Positions 1-37,328 of a DNA stretch of 64,000 nt are shown one piece after another. Origin of the DNA: Escherichia phage vB_EcoM-UFV10; sequence record OP555981.1; one strand, given 5' to 3'. The translations under genes were made by a program, and so were the position numbers. Positions within the stretch are counted from its first letter, which is position 1. Every line of letters starts with the position of its first letter. The notes under the pieces were generated by a model. That model saw only the letters and a program-made list of their open reading frames with translations, was not told the DNA's origin and made no database searches.

Positions 1-2178
1 TTAGGCCGCAAGGGCCTTCATAGTTTTAGCGATTTGGGAAACTTCATCATCACTTAAAGAGTTGCGATAACCGATGAAGTCGGAAACAATACGGAATTTC
101 TTGGTAAACTCAGCAACCATTTTATCACTATTTTTTGAAGCATTACGTGATAATTCATCAAAGAGATTAGTTACTGTCCAGATATCATGACCGATGGTAT
201 CTTTTCCACCGTTGAAGTATACACCCTGTAATGAACTAACCATATTAGCGAGTCGTGTATATTCTTCAGAAACTTCATCTACACTGAAGTACTTCATCAT
301 AAAATCTAATTCAGGATACTTGATAATTTTATCAATATATCGTTTAGCTGAACTTGAATAACCTACATACTTATCATAATCTACATCATCAAAAGCATCT
401 ACATATAAATCACGCAAAGCTTCAAAAATACATTGGCACTGACCGAGTTCTTTTACCTTTTTCTGTAAAAGCGGACGAATAACATAAAATTCATTAATGC
501 CAATAAGATTAGCCATACGAATCAAAATATTCATAGATGGATGACAAAGCGATGTAGTACCATCCATAGAGAAAATATCAGAACGATGCATATACGCTAC
601 ATAACCAGTAATTTCATCTGCTTCTGATGTGAGCGTAAATAGTTCCTCTTTTTCCCAGCGCCCGTCTTTAATTTCAAACTTAAATGCTGTAGCAGCTTTA
701 GGACGAGGAGCTTTACTTTTAACTACCTTTGGAATATAGCTTTTAACTAAAGCTTCAATTTCTGACAAATAATGAATGTTAACTTCATCACTTTCAAACA
801 TTGCCATAATATCAGGTAGTAAATCAATCTGCGATTCTACTTCCGGATTAATAAACAGAAGGCGTTCGTTATGATGAATATTCAAAGTGTTATTAAATTC
901 ACTATCATCTAACGCTCGTGCTAATCCACGAACAATATTAACACGATTTTTAATATTATCAATAACGATATTAATTTTTGTTGTATTAATACCAAACAGA
1001 CGATAACTTGATGCAACGGCTGAAGTTTCATGACTTTGCTTAATGCGCTTCAGTCGAGGGTCAAGATTTACTTCATACACAACTCCTGCATTGCATAACT
1101 TACTGTCAGGTTCAAACATGCTCTGCATCTTCTTATATGACAGATTTTTAGTCGTGAATTTGACTGAATTACTAATCATATAATCTCGAGCAGAATACCC
1201 CATCTTCATCAATTCACGGTATGTGTGACGAGGAGATGTAGATTCTTTAAATCGTTTTACATCTTCATTAAATGCTTTCTCACTAAGCTCTTTAACTCGT
1301 TCAATAATATTTTTACGAGTGCGATCATCTAATGAAAGAGCTTCGCGTGATGGAGCAATATCCAGTGAACCCATTGGAAATTTAATGTAATTCACTTCAT
1401 TGCGAATGCTTAACCAGTTACGGTCTCTAATAACACCATCGATAGGATAAACAATACCGCCATAGATAGCGTACAATCCACCACGATCAGGCCAGTATCT
1501 TTCTGGATTTACACCGTAATAGTCATCAAAATCCGGAAAATAATCAATTTCGCGGTCAAGACCATTAATGATAGCCAAATCTTTGAATGGTCGCATGATA
1601 TAAGAAACTTCATAAGCAAAGTTTCTAAAGTCTTTTTCTTCAACTGGAACTACGATTTCAATACCAGTTTTATCATTTGGACCCATTTCTTTTACGAATG
1701 TAGGTTTAATTTGTGGACCATCGCCATCCATGTAAGCTACATAACCACGAATTTCACCTTTATGATATGAAGTAATACTAAATGTATCAGTATAACTAAA
1801 CGGAGATTTAGAACCTAAACCAAATCCACCAATGAAATCATTAGATTCAGCCTTAGATGAACTAAAGTATGAATTATACAACCCAGGAGAATTATCATCA
1901 CCCTGAATATCAAAATCACTCATACCCGGACCAAAATCTCGACAAACAAATCGTGGATCTAAACGTCCAGGAACTTGAATGATAAATTTTTCAGGATTTC
2001 CATTGAGAGCATGGGCATCAATCATGTTAGTAATCAATTCACGGACTACTGCGCGAATCTTGTTTGTATACAAATCAGATGACAGAATTTTAAATACTTT
2101 AGGAGATGCTGTGATGCTAAATGCTTTTGATTTAGAACCATTACCAAGAATTGTTTCTTTTTCAGTGGTGATAATCAT
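1..2178 (-). CDS. rIIA: rIIA protein (GHKL-like ATPase fold at N-terminus)
   Basis: 725-aa ORF; N-terminus [16 protein letters not shown] and [16 protein letters not shown] Bergerat-type motif; length and position before gene 39 match T4 rIIA; ATG start, stop at 1-3. Confidence 0.9.
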
Positions 2179-2188
2179 AATTTCCTCA

Positions 2189-2392
2189 TTAATTCATATT
2201 ACGCTTAATAACTTCGGCAACTTCTAGTAGTTCATCTTTAGTTGCGGTGTCGGATTGAATTTTATCTCTAATATCCTTAAAGCGGTTTTTAAATTCTTCG
2301 GCTTCTCCCATATCGAAAAAGCGTTGAATGATTCTATATTCTCGATGAACTGCTTTATCAAAAAGTTCTAAATTTACTTTATATGATTTCAT
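2189..2392 (-). CDS. small protein downstream of rIIA (rIIA.1-like)
   Basis: 67-aa ORF with ATG start, directly downstream of an early promoter; synteny. Confidence 0.55.
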
Positions 2393-2417
2393 TTCAATAT
2401 CCTCATTTGCCCAATTA

Positions 2418-2447
2418 ATTATACCACATCCTTGTGGTAAAGTAAAC
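2418..2447 (-). promoter_or_regulatory. early promoter (sigma70-like -35 GTTTAC / -10 TATAAT) for rIIA.1
   Basis: minus strand GTTTAC-17bp-TATAAT; spacer holds palindrome CCACAAGGATGTGG; approximate coordinates. Confidence 0.55.
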
Positions 2448-4264
2448 TACTGGCTCATCCATTCTTTACGAAGGTCAGCATTATCTCCCATGAGCATTTC
2501 AAAAAGCTCTTTCCAATTCTCAGGAAGTTTAACAACATCATATACTGGGTTTTGAATCATCTCACGATATTCAGATTTTTCCAAAGAGCCAAGTCCTTTA
2601 ATATAACGGATGCTATGTTTAGGTAGAGCATCTTTGGCACTCTCATATTCAGCGACTGTATAAAACCATTCTTGTTTTTTACCGACCTGAGCGATGATTA
2701 CAGGAGTTTTGACAAAGCGAATTCGTCCTTGCTCAAACAATTCTGGCCAATTACTAAAAAATCCGAGCAGAGAAGGATAAATGCTTCCTAAACCATCATG
2801 GTCAGCATCGGTCATAATAGCAATATTATGATAATTCAAGTTTTCAGCTTTTTCACCAAGAACTAATCCAGTGATTGCGCAAATATCAAACAGTTCTTTG
2901 TTTTTAAGCATATCAGCATATGACATACCCCAGCTATTAAGAACTTTACCACGCAATGGATAACCACCGTGAAGTTCTTTATCACGAACATCAATAAGAT
3001 ATCCGATAGCAGAATCACCCTCAGTCAAGAAAAGAGTAGTGTCAGCATCTTTACCACAAAGATTCGCTTTGATATGTTTATGAACCTTAGCTTTAGAAGC
3101 CTTTTTAGCTGCTTTAGTTTCTGCTGCTTTTTCTGCCGCCAATTTACGAGCAAGGGCAGCTTCAATGATTGGCATTAAAATTGCTTCATTATTTAGAATA
3201 GCGCGTGAAATCTTTTTAGCATCAAGTTGAATATGACTACGAATTTCGCCAAATGGAGAAGTCAAACGCTCTTTAGTTTGAGAATCAAATCGCATGTTTT
3301 TCATATCACGGACAAACATAACGATAGTCAAACATTCTTTGACACGTGCTTTAGTCACATCAATTTTGAACTTACGTTTGATTTGTGGAATAAGGTCTTC
3401 ACAAATATCATCCATAACACAGTCAATGTGATGGCCACCATTCTTAGTGTGAATGTTATTCACATAAGTTAATTGACGAAATCCATCCGGTGAACGACCA
3501 ACAGCAATAGAACAATTTTCTTGTTCTTGAACAATAGCATGTTCATCATACTGTCGTGCATATTTCTTAAAATTGCCCTGAACCTTTTTACCATTAAAGG
3601 TAAATTGAATATCAGGATAAACAACAGCAAGTGTCTGGAGACGATCTAGTGTAATGTCAAGATAAACTTGGGACAGCTCATTAGTTTCAAATGACATAAA
3701 ATCTGGAATGAAAGTAACACGAGTTCCTTTCCATTTTCCAGGAATAGTTTCCCAGGATTTATTTTCCATGCCATTTGAACAACGAACTACAATATTATTT
3801 TGACCATCGCCAGTTTCACCGACAAACATCACAGAAAAAATGTTAGTTAAACTAGAACCAACACCATTCATACCACCGGTGACGCGTTCTTTATCATCAC
3901 CAAAGTTACCACCCGCTTTTGGAATAGTCCATGCAGCAACAGGACCAGGAATTTCTTCACCGGTAGGTGTTTTAACCATCGCTTGCGGAATACCGCGACC
4001 GTTATCTTCAACTGTCACCTGATTATTTTTAATGGTAACATTAATTTTATTCGCGAATTTAAACTTAGTACGAATACCTTCATCGACTGAGTTATCGATA
4101 ATTTCATCAATAAGCTTAACAAGACCAGGTACATACTGAACACTTTCCCATTTACCAAACAGAAAGCGCTCATGCATTTCATTAGCAGAAGAGCCAATGT
4201 ACATGCCACTACGCTTTTTGATATGTTCAATATCGCTCAGAATTTTAATTTCATTCTTAATCAT
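2447..4264 (-). CDS. 39: DNA topoisomerase II large subunit, GyrB-like ATPase, single fused 39+60 ORF
   Basis: 605 aa from ATG (track ORF begins one codon earlier at GTG); MIKNEIKILSDIEHIKKRSGMYIGS, GHKL and toprim-like regions; continuous ORF with no gene 60 or mobA. Confidence 0.9.
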   Translation of the reverse strand: MIKNEIKILSDIEHIKKRSGMYIGSSANEMHERFLFGKWESVQYVPGLVKLIDEIIDNSVDEGIRTKFKFANKINVTIKNNQVTVEDNGRGIPQAMVKTPTGEEIPGPVAAWTIPKAGGNFGDDKERVTGGMNGVGSSLTNIFSVMFVGETGDGQNNIVVRCSNGMENKSWETIPGKWKGTRVTFIPDFMSFETNELSQVYLDITLDRLQTLAVVYPDIQFTFNGKKVQGNFKKYARQYDEHAIVQEQENCSIAVGRSPDGFRQLTYVNNIHTKNGGHHIDCVMDDICEDLIPQIKRKFKIDVTKARVKECLTIVMFVRDMKNMRFDSQTKERLTSPFGEIRSHIQLDAKKISRAILNNEAILMPIIEAALARKLAAEKAAETKAAKKASKAKVHKHIKANLCGKDADTTLFLTEGDSAIGYLIDVRDKELHGGYPLRGKVLNSWGMSYADMLKNKELFDICAITGLVLGEKAENLNYHNIAIMTDADHDGLGSIYPSLLGFFSNWPELFEQGRIRFVKTPVIIAQVGKKQEWFYTVAEYESAKDALPKHSIRYIKGLGSLEKSEYREMIQNPVYDVVKLPENWKELFEMLMGDNADLRKEWMSQ

Positions 4265-4292
4265 CACTTATCCTCGTTTGGTTTCGGGAATA

Positions 4293-4316
4293 TTATACTC
4301 CGGCAATCATAAAGCT
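4293..4316 (-). promoter_or_regulatory. putative MotA-box middle promoter for gene 39
   Basis: minus strand AGCTTTA then about 12 nt then TATAAT, followed by GAGGA and start; approximate. Confidence 0.4.
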
Positions 4317-4334
4317 AAAGGCCCGAAGGCCTTT
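4317..4334 (-). terminator. UUCG-tetraloop hairpin
   Basis: AAAGGCC-cgaa-GGCCTTT; loop is UUCG on the minus transcript; directly 3' of the lipoprotein gene. Confidence 0.6.
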
Positions 4335-4603
4335 TATTTAAAACGAATAGTTGAATCCTTAAAGAACAGCCCAGAACATACTGTTCCTTCTACTTTCTGC
4401 CCGGTAGGTCCAATAGCACGAAATCCAGTATGCTGGAAATCATTTTCAGAGCAACCGAACCAATTGTATCCAGTGATTTCAATATTCGTAAAACCACTTG
4501 ATGATAAAATTTTAGTTGCATTATCAGCATCAGTACATCCTACTAAAGATACTGCTAATACTAATGCTGCGATAGAACGATTAACATATTTCATAATTTT
4601 CAC
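4334..4603 (-). CDS. small lipoprotein
   Basis: 89-aa ORF with lipoprotein signal LAVSLVGC-T; GTG start at 4603 or ATG three codons in; followed by UUCG hairpin. Confidence 0.5.
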   Translation of the reverse strand: MKIMKYVNRSIAALVLAVSLVGCTDADNATKILSSSGFTNIEITGYNWFGCSENDFQHTGFRAIGPTGQKVEGTVCSGLFFKDSTIRFK

Positions 4604-4974
4604 TTAAATTTAATGGCTTGAAGGAGACTAATAATTCTCAAACGGCTTCTTTCATCTTTAACTGTAAAAGAAAGAGGGTCGCCAGATTTCATGGTAATAG
4701 TGCATTCAAAATCAAAATCTTCAGTGACTTCTTCGAAGAAGTCAAATTCTTCATCATAAATTAGAACACTACTTTGCAGACTGTGAAGAGTTTTTCCAGC
4801 ATTTCTGCTAACTGCTGTACTAATCATTGTAACATTATGACCTTTCATATCTTCAACGATAAATTCACTAGTCAATATTACAGCATTAATAGAACTATTC
4901 CTATTACTAACAGAAAGTAGAAATTTCTGTTCTTCACCTTCACGAATACGATATTTCTTACCAATTTTAAACAT
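4600..4974 (-). CDS. hypothetical protein
   Basis: 124-aa ORF, ATG start, stop overlaps next start. Confidence 0.45.
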   Translation of the reverse strand: MFKIGKKYRIREGEEQKFLLSVSNRNSSINAVILTSEFIVEDMKGHNVTMISTAVSRNAGKTLHSLQSSVLIYDEEFDFFEEVTEDFDFECTITMKSGDPLSFTVKDERSRLRIISLLQAIKFK

Positions 4975-4976
4975 AA

Positions 4977-5153
4977 TTACCCTTTAAGTAAATCGTAAAA
5001 TCCACCATTCACATGCTTAGGAGCAGAAGGCCGACGAGTAGACAAACGATGACATTTAGGACAAACATCATTTTCTCGTTCAGAAATCTTTTTAATTTTT
5101 TCATATTCATGCCCGCAATCTTCGGATTGGCATTTATAATCATACATTGGCAT
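4977..5153 (-). CDS. small zinc-ribbon protein (CxxC...CxxC)
   Basis: 58-aa ORF below the track cutoff, read by hand: MPMYDYKCQSEDCGHEYEKIKKISERENDVCPKCHRL...; fits exactly between neighbouring genes. Confidence 0.5.
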   Translation of the reverse strand: MPMYDYKCQSEDCGHEYEKIKKISERENDVCPKCHRLSTRRPSAPKHVNGGFYDLLKG

Positions 5154-20892: not shown

Positions 20893-21237
20893 TTAAAAGA
20901 ATTTAAATTTTTTCTTTGACCTTTTATTAAATGCATCTTGTAGTTGCATTGTAATACATTTTTCTACATGAGGAGCTAACTCAGCTTTTCTTTCTTGGTC
21001 AAGAACAGCAAAGTCCATTACGACTTTTCCATCAACCCAATCTAATTTTGTCACATACACAATGTGTGTAGAACCGTCTTCTAGTTTAATGACAATCTCC
21101 TGGATAACATTTTCCATGGCAGATTTAATTATCTTAAGAGATTCATTAAAAAGACGTTCTTTTCTTTCTTCTTCCCCCTCCGAAGAGGGGGATTCATCGA
21201 TAATTTTTAGATCTAAATCTAAATCATCTTTATTCAT
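20893..21237 (-). CDS. 40: gene 40-position protein (head vertex assembly chaperone in T4)
   Basis: 114 aa from internal ATG; between 41 and uvsX as in T4; acidic N-terminus. Confidence 0.5.
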   Translation of the reverse strand: MNKDDLDLDLKIIDESPSSEGEEERKERLFNESLKIIKSAMENVIQEIVIKLEDGSTHIVYVTKLDWVDGKVVMDFAVLDQERKAELAPHVEKCITMQLQDAFNKRSKKKFKFF

Positions 21238-22411
21238 TAAATTCTTCCATATCACTTAACTGATCTAGGTCAGTTTCTAAATCAGCTGCTGATTTACTTT
21301 TACTTTCTGGAGATTTAAATTTTTCAACCTTTGAGTTAATCAATTCATCAACTTCAGCTTCAACAATTTCATTACTATCAATAGCACCTAACTGATAAGC
21401 ACGTTTAATAGCATCTCGGAACGGTTGATGCTTAAATAAAGGACCCCAGAATGTAGTGCAATTGGTATCTTTTGCACGCCAAGATTTTTCTTCGCGAATC
21501 ATCTCGCCGGTTTCTTCGTCAAGAAATTCACGAGCATACCAGCCATTTTTAGGTTTTACCACAAATCCTAATTCTAAAGCCATATCTAACAATCCAGAAT
21601 AAGGATCGATGCCACCGTCAAATTTAACATCAATAAAGAATTTACTTTTTTCTTTGACGGTACGAGATTTTTCTACATTTAGAACAAATTGATACCCCTG
21701 AAGATCAGAACCATCTTTAATCTGGCGCTTACCGATAATGAATACGGTATCAGCCGAATACATTACACCTGTACCACCTGTCATCACGGTTTTACTAAAC
21801 ATTTCAATTGTTTCAATTGTGTGGTTAACCGCAACACATGGAATATTTTTAATACTAAAATAAGGAGTAACAATACGGAATAATGACTTCAGTGATTTAG
21901 CACGAGTCATATCTGCCACAGATTTTTCATTCAAGGCATCTTCCGTTTCTTTCTTAGAAGCCATATTACCGATTGAGTCGATGAATACAATAACTTTTTC
22001 ACCACGCTCAATAGCTTCAAGCTGATTCACCATATCAATTTTCAGCTGTTCAACTGACTGAATTGGTGTATGAATTACTCGTTCCGGATCAACTCCCATG
22101 GATCGCAAATAAGCTGGAGTAATACCAAATTCGCTATCATAGAATAGACACACCGCGTCAGGATATTTGTTCAAATACGCCGCAACCATAGTCAAAGACA
22201 TATTTGATTTAAAGTGTTTAGAAGGACCTGCAAAAATGGTTAAACCAGACTGCATACCACCATCAATCGCACCTGAAATAGCGATATTAAGCATTGGGAT
22301 TTTTGTACGGATTACATCCTTTTCATTAAAGAATTTAGATGTAGTCAGTTCAGCAGTCATTTTAGAAGTGGAAGCTTTAATCAAACGGGATTTTAAATCT
22401 GCAATAGACAT
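21230..22411 (-). CDS. uvsX: UvsX recombinase (RecA-like)
   Basis: 393 aa, near-identical to remembered T4 UvsX across N- and C-termini; Walker A GPSKHFKS. Confidence 0.9.
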   Translation of the reverse strand: MSIADLKSRLIKASTSKMTAELTTSKFFNEKDVIRTKIPMLNIAISGAIDGGMQSGLTIFAGPSKHFKSNMSLTMVAAYLNKYPDAVCLFYDSEFGITPAYLRSMGVDPERVIHTPIQSVEQLKIDMVNQLEAIERGEKVIVFIDSIGNMASKKETEDALNEKSVADMTRAKSLKSLFRIVTPYFSIKNIPCVAVNHTIETIEMFSKTVMTGGTGVMYSADTVFIIGKRQIKDGSDLQGYQFVLNVEKSRTVKEKSKFFIDVKFDGGIDPYSGLLDMALELGFVVKPKNGWYAREFLDEETGEMIREEKSWRAKDTNCTTFWGPLFKHQPFRDAIKRAYQLGAIDSNEIVEAEVDELINSKVEKFKSPESKSKSAADLETDLDQLSDMEEFNE

Positions 22412-22488
22412 TCATTTTTTCCATAGGCATCATTATATTTTCCTCACTGGTTAAAGATAAAGTAATTATAACACAATAAATTTAGGCA

Positions 22489-23331
22489 TTAATCAACTGC
22501 TATTGGATGAATAGCATTAAACTTATGAAACGCTTCTGATTTTTCTTTGCGCGAAACACACATGCGAAGAACCTTTAATGGCTCGTCTTCTTCACCCAAC
22601 GATTTTCTCTTTTCAATATTAGAAGTTTTCCAACGAGCTTGCTCTGGAAACTCTCTATTGATTTGCTCAAGAGCTCTATTATGTTTTGAATTACTACGAA
22701 TTGAACTACATCCGCCTGGAGCTTGTGCTTTTCCAGATACAACCAGATATTTGAACAAGGCCAAATGCGGATAACCTTGATTAATTAAATTGAGAAATGC
22801 ATACATATCTTCGCATAAATCAATTTTTCCATACCCAATTTGTTCTGTTGTAAGTTTCCCGAGGTCATACCAAGTATTCGTGAATCCATATGAATTTTCA
22901 CGATAATTACCCCAAGATGAAGTAATTTTAAAAATTGGTAAACGAGCATGGCCATGATAATACCCGCAATCCATGGCATCTTCAACGTATTGAATCAATT
23001 CATAGAACTGTTCACGAGTTAACTGATTAATTTTATCTACGCAGCGACGGTCATCTTTCTTTCGCATTGAACTCATACGAATAGTAGTATCATCGTCAAT
23101 CATCCAAATTCGTTGACCTGCATACATATCAGTAATTGCTTTACGAGTACCAGCAATTCCGTTAACATCATCAGGAATAGTTATAATTTTAGCTCTAGAC
23201 CCGTAAGCGTCATAATAAGCTTTTTCTTCGTGTTCACGTACTACAATATGTGGTTCATAATCAGTCGGAAACATATCAAGGGCAGAAACTGCCCCTACGC
23301 GTTGATAGCTTGGAATTACGAATTGAATCAT
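22489..23331 (-). CDS. GT-A family glycosyltransferase at the beta-gt locus (possibly beta-glucosyl-HMC alpha-glucosyltransferase)
   Basis: 280 aa from ATG; DxD-type motif IWMIDDDTT; not T4 beta-gt (351 aa, different sequence); ATGA overlap with gene 42. Confidence 0.55.
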   Translation of the reverse strand: MIQFVIPSYQRVGAVSALDMFPTDYEPHIVVREHEEKAYYDAYGSRAKIITIPDDVNGIAGTRKAITDMYAGQRIWMIDDDTTIRMSSMRKKDDRRCVDKINQLTREQFYELIQYVEDAMDCGYYHGHARLPIFKITSSWGNYRENSYGFTNTWYDLGKLTTEQIGYGKIDLCEDMYAFLNLINQGYPHLALFKYLVVSGKAQAPGGCSSIRSNSKHNRALEQINREFPEQARWKTSNIEKRKSLGEEDEPLKVLRMCVSRKEKSEAFHKFNAIHPIAVD

Positions 23332-24068
23332 TTCCACTCACCGTTATAATCTTTTTTCGCAATATGAGTTTCGCCAGTTTTCCACCAATGGTCAACCAAA
23401 TAAAAATGACGGGAATACACATGAAGGCTCCCGACATTCCATATAATGGAACCTGCTTTATACTGACGGGTTGAATCACCTGCATTCAAATCAGATACTA
23501 ATTTATCTAGTACGTATTTTTGCCATGCATAATCATTACGGAATCCGAAGACCACGTCATTTGAACGCATGCTTACTACTGCATTGACTTTCTTATCACG
23601 AATCAGGTACTGTACTGTATTCGTACACATGAAATCTGACATACCATCTTTATTGTAGTCAAACTGCATGGATGGACGAGTATAAATCATGATACCACGC
23701 CGAGAATCAGGATTTTGACCAAGTTCAGCTAAACACATATCATACTGAGCATAGTTATCTTCTGACCAAATAGCCCAACCATAATTCGAGTTAATTTCGC
23801 CTTTAGAAGATGCTACCTGTTGCCAAATCTTCGGTGTTTCACCTGGAATATCTTTAACAAACAGGCTTTGAGACTTATACCATTCAAGTTCACGCTGAAT
23901 GTATTCATCATTAAGAGCGCCAAAAATAAAAGGTTCATCTGCTACAAATGATGCACCAATAATTTCAATAGTTTTAACACCAGTTTTATCAATTACGAAA
24001 TCTTTTTCCTTTAATGCAAGACCCAAATCAAGACGGATTTCTTCAACTGTCATATAATCGTTAATCAT
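23328..24068 (-). CDS. 42: dCMP hydroxymethylase (thymidylate-synthase fold)
   Basis: 246 aa, position between the glycosyltransferase and imm; length matches T4 gp42. Confidence 0.8.
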   Translation of the reverse strand: MINDYMTVEEIRLDLGLALKEKDFVIDKTGVKTIEIIGASFVADEPFIFGALNDEYIQRELEWYKSQSLFVKDIPGETPKIWQQVASSKGEINSNYGWAIWSEDNYAQYDMCLAELGQNPDSRRGIMIYTRPSMQFDYNKDGMSDFMCTNTVQYLIRDKKVNAVVSMRSNDVVFGFRNDYAWQKYVLDKLVSDLNAGDSTRQYKAGSIIWNVGSLHVYSRHFYLVDHWWKTGETHIAKKDYNGEWK

Positions 24069-24075
24069 TTAAACC

Positions 24076-24225
24076 TCAATTGATGCATTCATATTTAATT
24101 TGTAACAGTAATAAACCCCAACCTATAATAAGTGTCGGAATCATACAAGGAACCGTTACGCTATAGTATATACTTATTATAATCATCAAGATTAAAAGCA
24201 ATACTGCTAAAATTTTGCTTTTCAT
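24076..24225 (-). CDS. small membrane peptide (imm.1-like)
   Basis: 49-aa hydrophobic ORF read by hand (MKSKILAVLLLILMIIISIYY...); ATGA overlap with imm stop. Confidence 0.35.
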   Translation of the reverse strand: MKSKILAVLLLILMIIISIYYSVTVPCMIPTLIIGWGLLLLQIKYECIN

Positions 24226-35665: not shown

Positions 35666-35683
35666 AAAGGGCCGAAGCCCTTT
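35666..35683 (-). terminator. UUCG-tetraloop hairpin after a-gt
   Basis: AAAGGGC-cgaa-GCCCTTT. Confidence 0.55.
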
Positions 35684-36884
35684 ATTTTGTAATAATGTCA
35701 AACTGCTCTTTAAAGCAGAAGCTTGAATCTTGGTGCTGATACAAAAATTCATAAGCTTTTTCGCGTTCACGGTCATAAAGAGTTCGGTCAGATGACAGTT
35801 CTTTAATACGTTCAAATGTTGATTCCATGTCATTTTCATCAAACCAAATGATACCGCTATCATGCGAGGTCAAAGGAGTATTATCAACACGGAATTTTAA
35901 ATTTTCGCCTGTAGATTTCCAAAATACCGGAATTGTTCCACATGCACCAAGCTCGAGATGAGTATATTCTAAAGAACGTTGTAGATATTTTTTGTCCAAC
36001 TTACTCAGCTGATAACCAAATCCGGATTTACTCATGCGTTCAAGCATTTCGCTATTTACATAACGGTCAAGAATTTGCGTTGGCAAATTAGGAGCAATTT
36101 TAATTTGGTCTACTTGATGAAGACGATAATACTCGTATGGAATTCCTTTTTCTTTAATAGGAATGAACGCTGGAGAACGTTCCAGACCTTCCATAATAGT
36201 ACTTAGTCCTGCAGGTTTAAGATGTTTTTCATGAAAATCAAACATCTGATAAAAACCTTTCCACGTAGTAGTACGACCAATCCAACGATTGATATTCATG
36301 TTAATTTCAGAAACATCTTTCCAGTAGGTTGATCGAACCTTTGCAATATCCATCGGAGGCTGAAAGTTATATACTGTCGGTGCTTCTTCAATATCATCAA
36401 ACAGAGAAACTGTTTCAGGATACCATTCTTTCATCAGAACTTTATTAAAATCGCCATTATCAGAATGGCTAAAAATAACATCAGCTCGACGAACAGTTTC
36501 TTCTAATCCCAAATTTCGACGCAAAGAAAGAGAAGAATGGTCATGTTGATAAACTACAACACGAACAGAAGGTTTAATGTTATCAATAATTTTTTTATAG
36601 TTATTAATAGTGTCTTCTTCAACTGAAGTAGCAGGAACTGAATTGATAATTAGAATATCACAATCATTTACCAGCTTAAGTGTTTTATCGTATTCTTTTG
36701 CCAATAAAACCGGAATTGAAAATGATTTATAATCATGCGCGCAATTACGAGTAAATGATTTATCTTTAGCATAAACCAAAGTTACTTCATGACCATTTTT
36801 AATAAACCAATCACGTTGCTCAAGAGAAAATTTAGTTACACCACAACCTTCAAGACCTCGAGCCATAAAAATACATACTTTCAT
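35682..36884 (-). CDS. a-gt: DNA alpha-glucosyltransferase
   Basis: 400 aa as T4 AGT; N-terminus M-VCIFMARGLEGCGVTKF close to remembered T4 AGT; MotA-box promoter upstream. Confidence 0.8.
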   Translation of the reverse strand: MKVCIFMARGLEGCGVTKFSLEQRDWFIKNGHEVTLVYAKDKSFTRNCAHDYKSFSIPVLLAKEYDKTLKLVNDCDILIINSVPATSVEEDTINNYKKIIDNIKPSVRVVVYQHDHSSLSLRRNLGLEETVRRADVIFSHSDNGDFNKVLMKEWYPETVSLFDDIEEAPTVYNFQPPMDIAKVRSTYWKDVSEINMNINRWIGRTTTWKGFYQMFDFHEKHLKPAGLSTIMEGLERSPAFIPIKEKGIPYEYYRLHQVDQIKIAPNLPTQILDRYVNSEMLERMSKSGFGYQLSKLDKKYLQRSLEYTHLELGACGTIPVFWKSTGENLKFRVDNTPLTSHDSGIIWFDENDMESTFERIKELSSDRTLYDREREKAYEFLYQHQDSSFCFKEQFDIITK

Positions 36885-36904
36885 TTAATATCCTCTTTGT
36901 TTTG

Positions 36905-36932
36905 GTTTATTTTACCAAAAATTTATAAAGCA
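36905..36932 (-). promoter_or_regulatory. putative MotA-box middle promoter for a-gt
   Basis: minus strand TTGCTTTATA then about 12 nt then TAAAAT; approximate. Confidence 0.4.
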
Positions 36933-36934
36933 AT

Positions 36935-36954
36935 ATAGGAGCCGAAGCTCCTAT
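36935..36954 (-). terminator. UUCG-tetraloop hairpin
   Basis: ATAGGAGC-cgaa-GCTCCTAT. Confidence 0.5.
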
Positions 36955-37124
36955 CCGCATAATACACCATACAAAGGCTCATTAGAGCTTCTAAATTTTA
37001 TGCGCTTATATGTTATAGTTCCTTCTGCTTTAGCTTTATCATGAGACTCTTTAAAGCGTCTCATCATTTCCTTTTTAGAGGAACGAATTTTATAATCTAT
37101 TTCAGAAGTCTGGGTGTTCATCTT

Positions 37125-37328
37125 TCATAACTGCCACCATTTTTTGACTTGATAAGAATCAACCCACACTTTCATATTAGGGTCTGCTCTTACAATAGGA
37201 GGATTAACTTCTTTAATTGAACTATCATGGTATTCTTTTTCAGAAATTTTCACACAAAGATGACCATTCAAAGATTCAGTAAATCCTGCATTAATTTTAA
37301 GACGCTTGAATTTTACGTGTGTAAGCAT
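37125..37328 (-). CDS. hypothetical protein
   Basis: 67 aa from ATG (track start is TTG). Confidence 0.4.
   Translation of the reverse strand: MLTHVKFKRLKINAGFTESLNGHLCVKISEKEYHDSSIKEVNPPIVRADPNMKVWVDSYQVKKWWQL

Follow-up and report, generated by a model that had tools for sequence, protein, structure and literature searches.

Escherichia phage vB_EcoM-UFV10 very probably carries a T2/T6-type beta-glucosyl-HMC-alpha-glucosyltransferase gene at the locus of the T4 beta-glucosyltransferase

We analysed a 64,000 nt stretch of DNA from Escherichia phage vB_EcoM-UFV10 (OP555981.1; the whole stretch is referred to as the window), and found that the ORF at 22489-23331 is very probably the orthologue of the ba-gt gene of phages T2 and T6, the product of which would yield gentiobiosyl-hydroxymethylcytosine (gentiobiosyl-hmC) after the alpha-glucosyltransferase a-gt has acted. 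We show here the orthology, the order of the genes, the class of fold, the conservation of the motifs and the presence of a-gt; for the enzymatic activity and the effect on host defence, we rely on published work. The window ba-gt is a textbook gene found where it would be expected, and brings nothing new to biology: earlier publications already describe the gene and its product, the fold class and the part played in evading host defence, and the exact sequence has been deposited before. The gene and its upstream neighbour are as follows.

22489-23331, minus strand: ba-gt (ggt) coding sequence, beta-glucosyl-HMC-alpha-glucosyltransferase, 280 aa plus stop (ORF list, PHROG 842, Pfam TAGT)
23328-24068, minus strand: gene 42, dCMP hydroxymethylase, which makes the hmC base; 96% identity to T4 gp42, with a stop codon that overlaps the ba-gt start

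A homology search against the T2/T6 enzyme, the check proposed in the first-pass annotation of this DNA, returned 98-99% identity to the proteins of the T2 and T6 locus. Alignment over the full 280 aa gave 99% identity to the T2 protein of the same locus (EcT2_00043, AP018813), and identity to T6 ggt (MH550421, NC_054907), which carries the annotation beta-glucosyl-HMC-alpha-glucosyltransferase, was 98% over the full length. The full-length protein matched PHROG 842, 'beta-glucosyl-HMC-alpha-glucosyltransferase' (E = 5.6e-89), and residues 3-207 aligned with positions 2-205 of the 205-position Pfam TAGT profile (PF20691, TET-associated glycosyltransferase) with a score of 38.8 bits (curated gathering cut-off, 27.5 bits). 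No NCBIfam model matched the protein. At the DNA level, the gene is 100% identical in four deposited genomes, those of Escherichia phages vB_EcoM-UFV05, 06, 09 and 11, the records of which annotate it as 'glucosyl transferase'. A pseudogene was rejected, since the reading frame is unbroken and no conserved residue is missing.

In the ORF list, the minus-strand frame spans 22489-23337 and would encode 282 aa from a GTG start; an ATG at 23331, two codons past the GTG, gives the 280 aa protein. This ATG lies within an ATGA sequence (23331-23328) that it shares with the TGA stop of gene 42, a 4 nt overlap, and the purine-rich GAGTGGA is found immediately 5' of it. The overlap leads us to infer that ba-gt is probably co-transcribed and translationally coupled with gene 42, and thus with the gene for the hmC-precursor enzyme. 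Downstream, ba-gt adjoins a gene (21230-22411, minus strand) whose product is 90% identical to T4 UvsX. Given the identities of the two flanking products to T4 gp42 and UvsX, the first-pass description of a 280 aa ORF between uvsX and gene 42 is correct, and the gene order matches that of T2 and T6. The GC content over the gene (0.35-0.39) is ordinary for its region.

The sequence around the gene contained several other features. A scan for sigma-70 promoters found no excess of promoter-like sites (12 versus 9.4 in shuffled sequence). The 77 nt spacer between ba-gt and uvsX holds the sequence TGCCTAAA, followed by TATAAT approximately 11 nt further on (window 22440-22488, minus strand), and the spacer differs by one base between the window and T2/T6. 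The arrangement of TGCCTAAA and TATAAT, which was not flagged by the sigma-70 scan, is reminiscent of a T4 middle (MotA-box) promoter that would serve uvsX. Within codons 12-18 of ba-gt, there is a GC-rich 9 bp hairpin (GGGGCAGTTTCTGCCC) with a T-rich tail (23277-23297, minus strand) that is kept in T2 and T6; one such site is about the chance expectation for the region. Finally, a strongly hydrophobic 49 aa ORF at 24076-24225 (minus strand) is positioned between gene 42 and imm, with a 4 nt overlap with the imm stop. It is annotated as 'hypothetical' in UFV09, and the equivalent gap carries no annotation in the T4, T2 and T6 records. To judge from its sequence, this ORF may encode an unrecognized small membrane protein.

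The first-pass annotation had also stated that the protein does not resemble the N-terminus of T4 beta-gt. The lack of resemblance was confirmed: BLASTP against the 351 aa T4 enzyme gave no match (best E = 3.4, over 8 residues), there was no full-length alignment and a Pfam search of the protein found no b-gt family match. The possibility that the gene is a diverged T4 b-gt was rejected on the BLASTP result.

The proposed function depends on a partner enzyme that supplies the acceptor, and the window encodes one.

35682-36884, minus strand: a-gt, alpha-glucosyltransferase, 400 aa, which makes the alpha-glucosyl-hmC acceptor (Pfam AGT PF11440, E = 4.3e-237)

The product of this gene is 100% identical to the a-gt of T2, 92% identical to that of T6 and 91% identical to that of T4. 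The conventional 400 aa a-gt recognized at first pass was confirmed. In T2 and T6, the homologous ba-gt attaches a further glucose to a base that already carries an alpha-glucose, and the product is beta-1,6-glucosyl-alpha-glucosyl (gentiobiosyl) hmC (PMC6024577; bioRxiv 10.64898/2025.12.06.692756). Gentiobiosyl-hmC makes up ~72% of hmC in T6 and ~5% in T2, and ~25% of hmC is unglucosylated in both (PMC6024577; bioRxiv 10.64898/2025.12.06.692756). By analogy, hydroxymethylcytosine made by the gp42 route would enter the phage DNA at replication, the GT-B enzyme a-gt would place an alpha-glucose on the hmC, and ba-gt would then use UDP-glucose to link a second glucose beta-1,6 to the alpha-glucose, generating gentiobiosyl-hmC. 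The 98-99% identity to the T2/T6 proteins, together with the presence of a-gt, supports the suggestion that the HMC-DNA sugar pattern differs from that of T4 and is possibly gentiobiosyl. The phage DNA should carry a T2/T6-type pattern of alpha-glucosyl-hmC, gentiobiosyl-hmC and some bare hmC, with no beta-monoglucosyl-hmC. The gentiobiosyl fraction could be T2-like (~5%) or T6-like (~72%), the residues of the window enzyme being mixed.

Two acidic motifs are candidates for the active site.

23089-23097, minus strand: codons of the DxD motif, D79-D80-D81 (GAC GAT GAT), a putative metal and UDP-sugar binding site
22807-22812, minus strand: codons of the E174-D175 'ED' pair, a candidate catalytic base by analogy with inverting GT2-like enzymes

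GT2-like GT-A enzymes are typically inverting, and rely on a divalent metal bound by the DxD motif together with an acidic base. A beta product formed from UDP-alpha-glucose needs an inverting mechanism, which fits the GT2-like fold. In the mechanism that we propose, residues 79-81 would hold the metal and UDP, and E174-D175, by likeness to the TED motif of GT2 enzymes, would be the candidate catalytic base. The DDD (DxD) motif noticed at first pass is located at residues 79-81, and both it and the ED pair are conserved in homologues, so that the putative catalytic residues are not lacking. D79 and D80 are invariant across homologues as distant as 21-32% identity; D81 is invariant in alignment A5 and is replaced by Ser in phage DLP_6. 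E174 and D175 are both invariant in alignment A4, and D175 is also invariant in A5. The positions conserved down to 21-32% identity comprise the N-terminal strand I6-P7-x-Y9 (IPSY), D79-D80, D175, G206-G207 and R212.

Searches of the PDB by sequence, with the single protein and with a six-sequence profile, gave no significant match, and the fold assignment therefore rests on prediction. A single-sequence AlphaFold2 run produced an unusable model (mean pLDDT 39.6). The word-indexed homologue search returned 11 clusters only, so that the structure model is built on a shallow alignment; from a nine-sequence alignment (32-78% identity), AlphaFold2 gave a mean pLDDT of 72 and a pTM of 0.74, with low-confidence stretches at residues 127-138 and 191-211. 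The protein models as a GT-A enzyme, with a single Rossmann-like nucleotide-diphospho-sugar transferase fold, and D79-D80-D81 comes after the strand at 74-77 of the model, as the DxD motif does after the fourth beta-strand of GT-A enzymes. The Pfam TAGT match, the AlphaFold2 model and the conserved DxD are all consistent with the initial suggestion of a GT-A-like enzyme. An AlphaFold3 model of T6 ba-gt has been assigned to the GT-A superfamily, with GT2 as its sister (2025 preprint, bioRxiv 10.64898/2025.12.06.692756), and our AlphaFold2 model independently agrees with this placement.

To place the locus amongst related phages, we compared the distribution of the two transferase genes. Megablast of the ba-gt gene matched approximately 474 phage records, all with at least 80% query coverage and at least 90% nucleotide identity, and many of them annotated as beta-glucosyl-HMC-alpha-glucosyltransferase. 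In contrast, T4 b-gt matched only 29 phage records, mostly T4 and close relatives such as RB55 and RB59. The arrangement in the window is therefore the commoner one, a point that the first-pass annotation had missed, and T4 is the exception. This count agrees with the T4-like RB phages, 12 of 14 of which have a-gt and ba-gt, with a-gt and b-gt found in RB55 and RB59 only (Thomas et al. 2018, PMC6024577). More distantly, tblastn identified relatives of 62-66% identity in Karamvirus, Gelderlandvirus and Klebsiella T4-like phages, and one of 21% identity in Stenotrophomonas phage DLP_6. The ba-gt-like genes of CC31, S16 and Roth68 (64-66% identity) directly follow gene 42, their start codons overlapping its stop codon, as in the window. 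In CC31 (Karamvirus) and S16 (Gelderlandvirus), the order is gene 42, ba-gt-like gene, T4-type b-gt, uvsX, whereas the window lacks b-gt. The two transferase genes are in tandem and overlap in both CC31 (2267-4904 of the compared piece) and S16 (767-3404). It may be that T4, with b-gt only, and T2, T6 and the window, with ba-gt only, are alternative reductions of a two-gene ancestor resembling the CC31/S16 pair.

In T4, the homing-endonuclease genes segA and mobB flank the glucosyltransferase genes, whereas the window lacks both. No segA was found between uvsX and the transferase gene (22412-22488), where T4 has it, and there was no mobB-sized ORF beside a-gt (36885-37296); segA and mobB are lacking in T2 and T6 too. 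Compared with T4, the UvsX product of the window (21230-22411, minus strand) is mosaic: residues 1-240, which are nearest to ba-gt, hold nearly all of the substitutions, and over residues 241-393 the two proteins hardly differ. Divergence distributed in this way is suggestive of a recombination boundary within uvsX, linked to the exchange of the transferase gene.

The T2 and T6 ba-gt proteins are themselves only about five residues apart. The window protein differs from that of T2 by four substitutions (R11H, K92R, I101V and P251S, window residue first) and from that of T6 by five, none of them at family-invariant positions. It shares R11 and P251 with T6, and Y40, D55 and R106 with T2. K92 and I101 occur in neither T2 nor T6 and are private to the window lineage; both are conservative changes. 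There is a slim chance that this natural T2/T6 chimera, which is accompanied by an a-gt identical to that of T2, could help to map the residues or the a-gt allele that set the extent of the second glucosylation, and we are similarly doubtful of the related idea that laboratory stocks frequently have a damaged ba-gt, for which the different lesions of two T6 records speak.

Comparison with T6 also revealed lesions in public T6 records. In MH550421, codon 10 of ba-gt is TAG (amber), compared with CAA in the window (4923-4990 of the compared piece), and the gene is annotated from Met20, which would drop the conserved first beta-strand. In NC_054907/AP018814, Q10 is intact and one Asp of the DDD motif is lost in frame, leaving a protein of 279 aa (911-1750 of the compared piece). 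T6 is the phage with the highest reported share of gentiobiosyl-hmC, and these lesions in two public records could have arisen as mutations of the stocks or as sequencing errors, or could be variants that the phage tolerates. Neither is present in the window ba-gt, which has both Q10 and DDD.

We weighed three other accounts of the gene. Because its gene is found where T4 has b-gt, and because some database records label it 'beta-glucosyltransferase', the protein might be a primary beta-glucosyltransferase that acts on bare hmC, a functional replacement of T4 beta-gt with a different fold. We regard this as highly improbable: the T2/T6 enzymes to which it is 98-99% identical are described as acting on the alpha-glucosylated base, a primary beta-gt would glucosylate the ~25% of hmC that stays bare in T2 and T6 (PMC6024577; bioRxiv 10.64898/2025.12.06.692756), and the homologue in CC31 and S16 adjoins a true b-gt, implying that the functions are non-redundant.

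We give equally little credit to the proposal that this phage has the gene in an inactive form or can dispense with it, which would leave the DNA with alpha-glucosyl-hmC only. The T6 lesions (the amber codon 10 of MH550421 and the Asp loss of NC_054907) do suggest that laboratory stocks can tolerate changes, but the window ORF is full length, retains Q10, DDD and all family-invariant residues, and is identical in four independent isolates. Least credible of all, to the point of being nearly dismissible, is the transfer of a different sugar, or a different linkage, from that of the T2/T6 enzyme owing to K92 and I101. Sugar diversity amongst T4-like phages is real, as in the arabinosyl-hmC of RB69 (PMC6024577), but R/K and V/I are conservative exchanges at positions that vary across the family, and RB69-type arabinosylation is carried out by unrelated genes (PMC6024577). 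Identity as a T2/T6 ba-gt orthologue is the reading that we favour, and we found nothing that argues directly against it.

The sugar pattern of hmC decides which host defences can attack the DNA, including Brig1-type glycosylases, GmrSD-type type IV enzymes, restriction enzymes and some CRISPR systems, and also which laboratory enzymes cut it. The first-pass annotation had anticipated an effect on modification-dependent defence, and this has already been shown experimentally in T6: deletion of ba-gt leaves alpha-glucosyl-hmC only and makes the phage more susceptible to the Brig1 DNA glycosylase, an enzyme that leaves wild-type T6 DNA undegraded (PMC11078745). The reported targets of GmrSD are both glucosyl stereoisomers and the gentiobiosyl base (bioRxiv 10.64898/2025.12.06.692756). 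As a-gt is combined with ba-gt and not with b-gt, the phage is predicted to behave like T2 and T6, a point of use in annotation and in the choice of therapy phages.

Amongst known systems, the closest likeness of the window gene is to ba-gt of T2 and T6, with which it shares the slot between gene 42 and uvsX and the partner a-gt; the 4 nt overlap with gene 42 is also seen in T2. With T4 b-gt, it shares the chromosomal slot, the UDP-glucose donor and the beta stereochemistry of the new bond (established; PMC6024577). The T4 enzyme differs in having a GT-B fold, compared with the GT-A fold predicted for the window enzyme and for T6 ba-gt (bioRxiv 10.64898/2025.12.06.692756), and in its acceptor, which is bare hmC rather than the alpha-glucosyl-hmC used by ba-gt. 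From Pfam TAGT and GT2-like GT-A enzymes, the protein is set apart by an identity of only 8-16% to solved GT2 structures and by its acceptor, which is a sugar on DNA as opposed to a glycan, lipid or protein.
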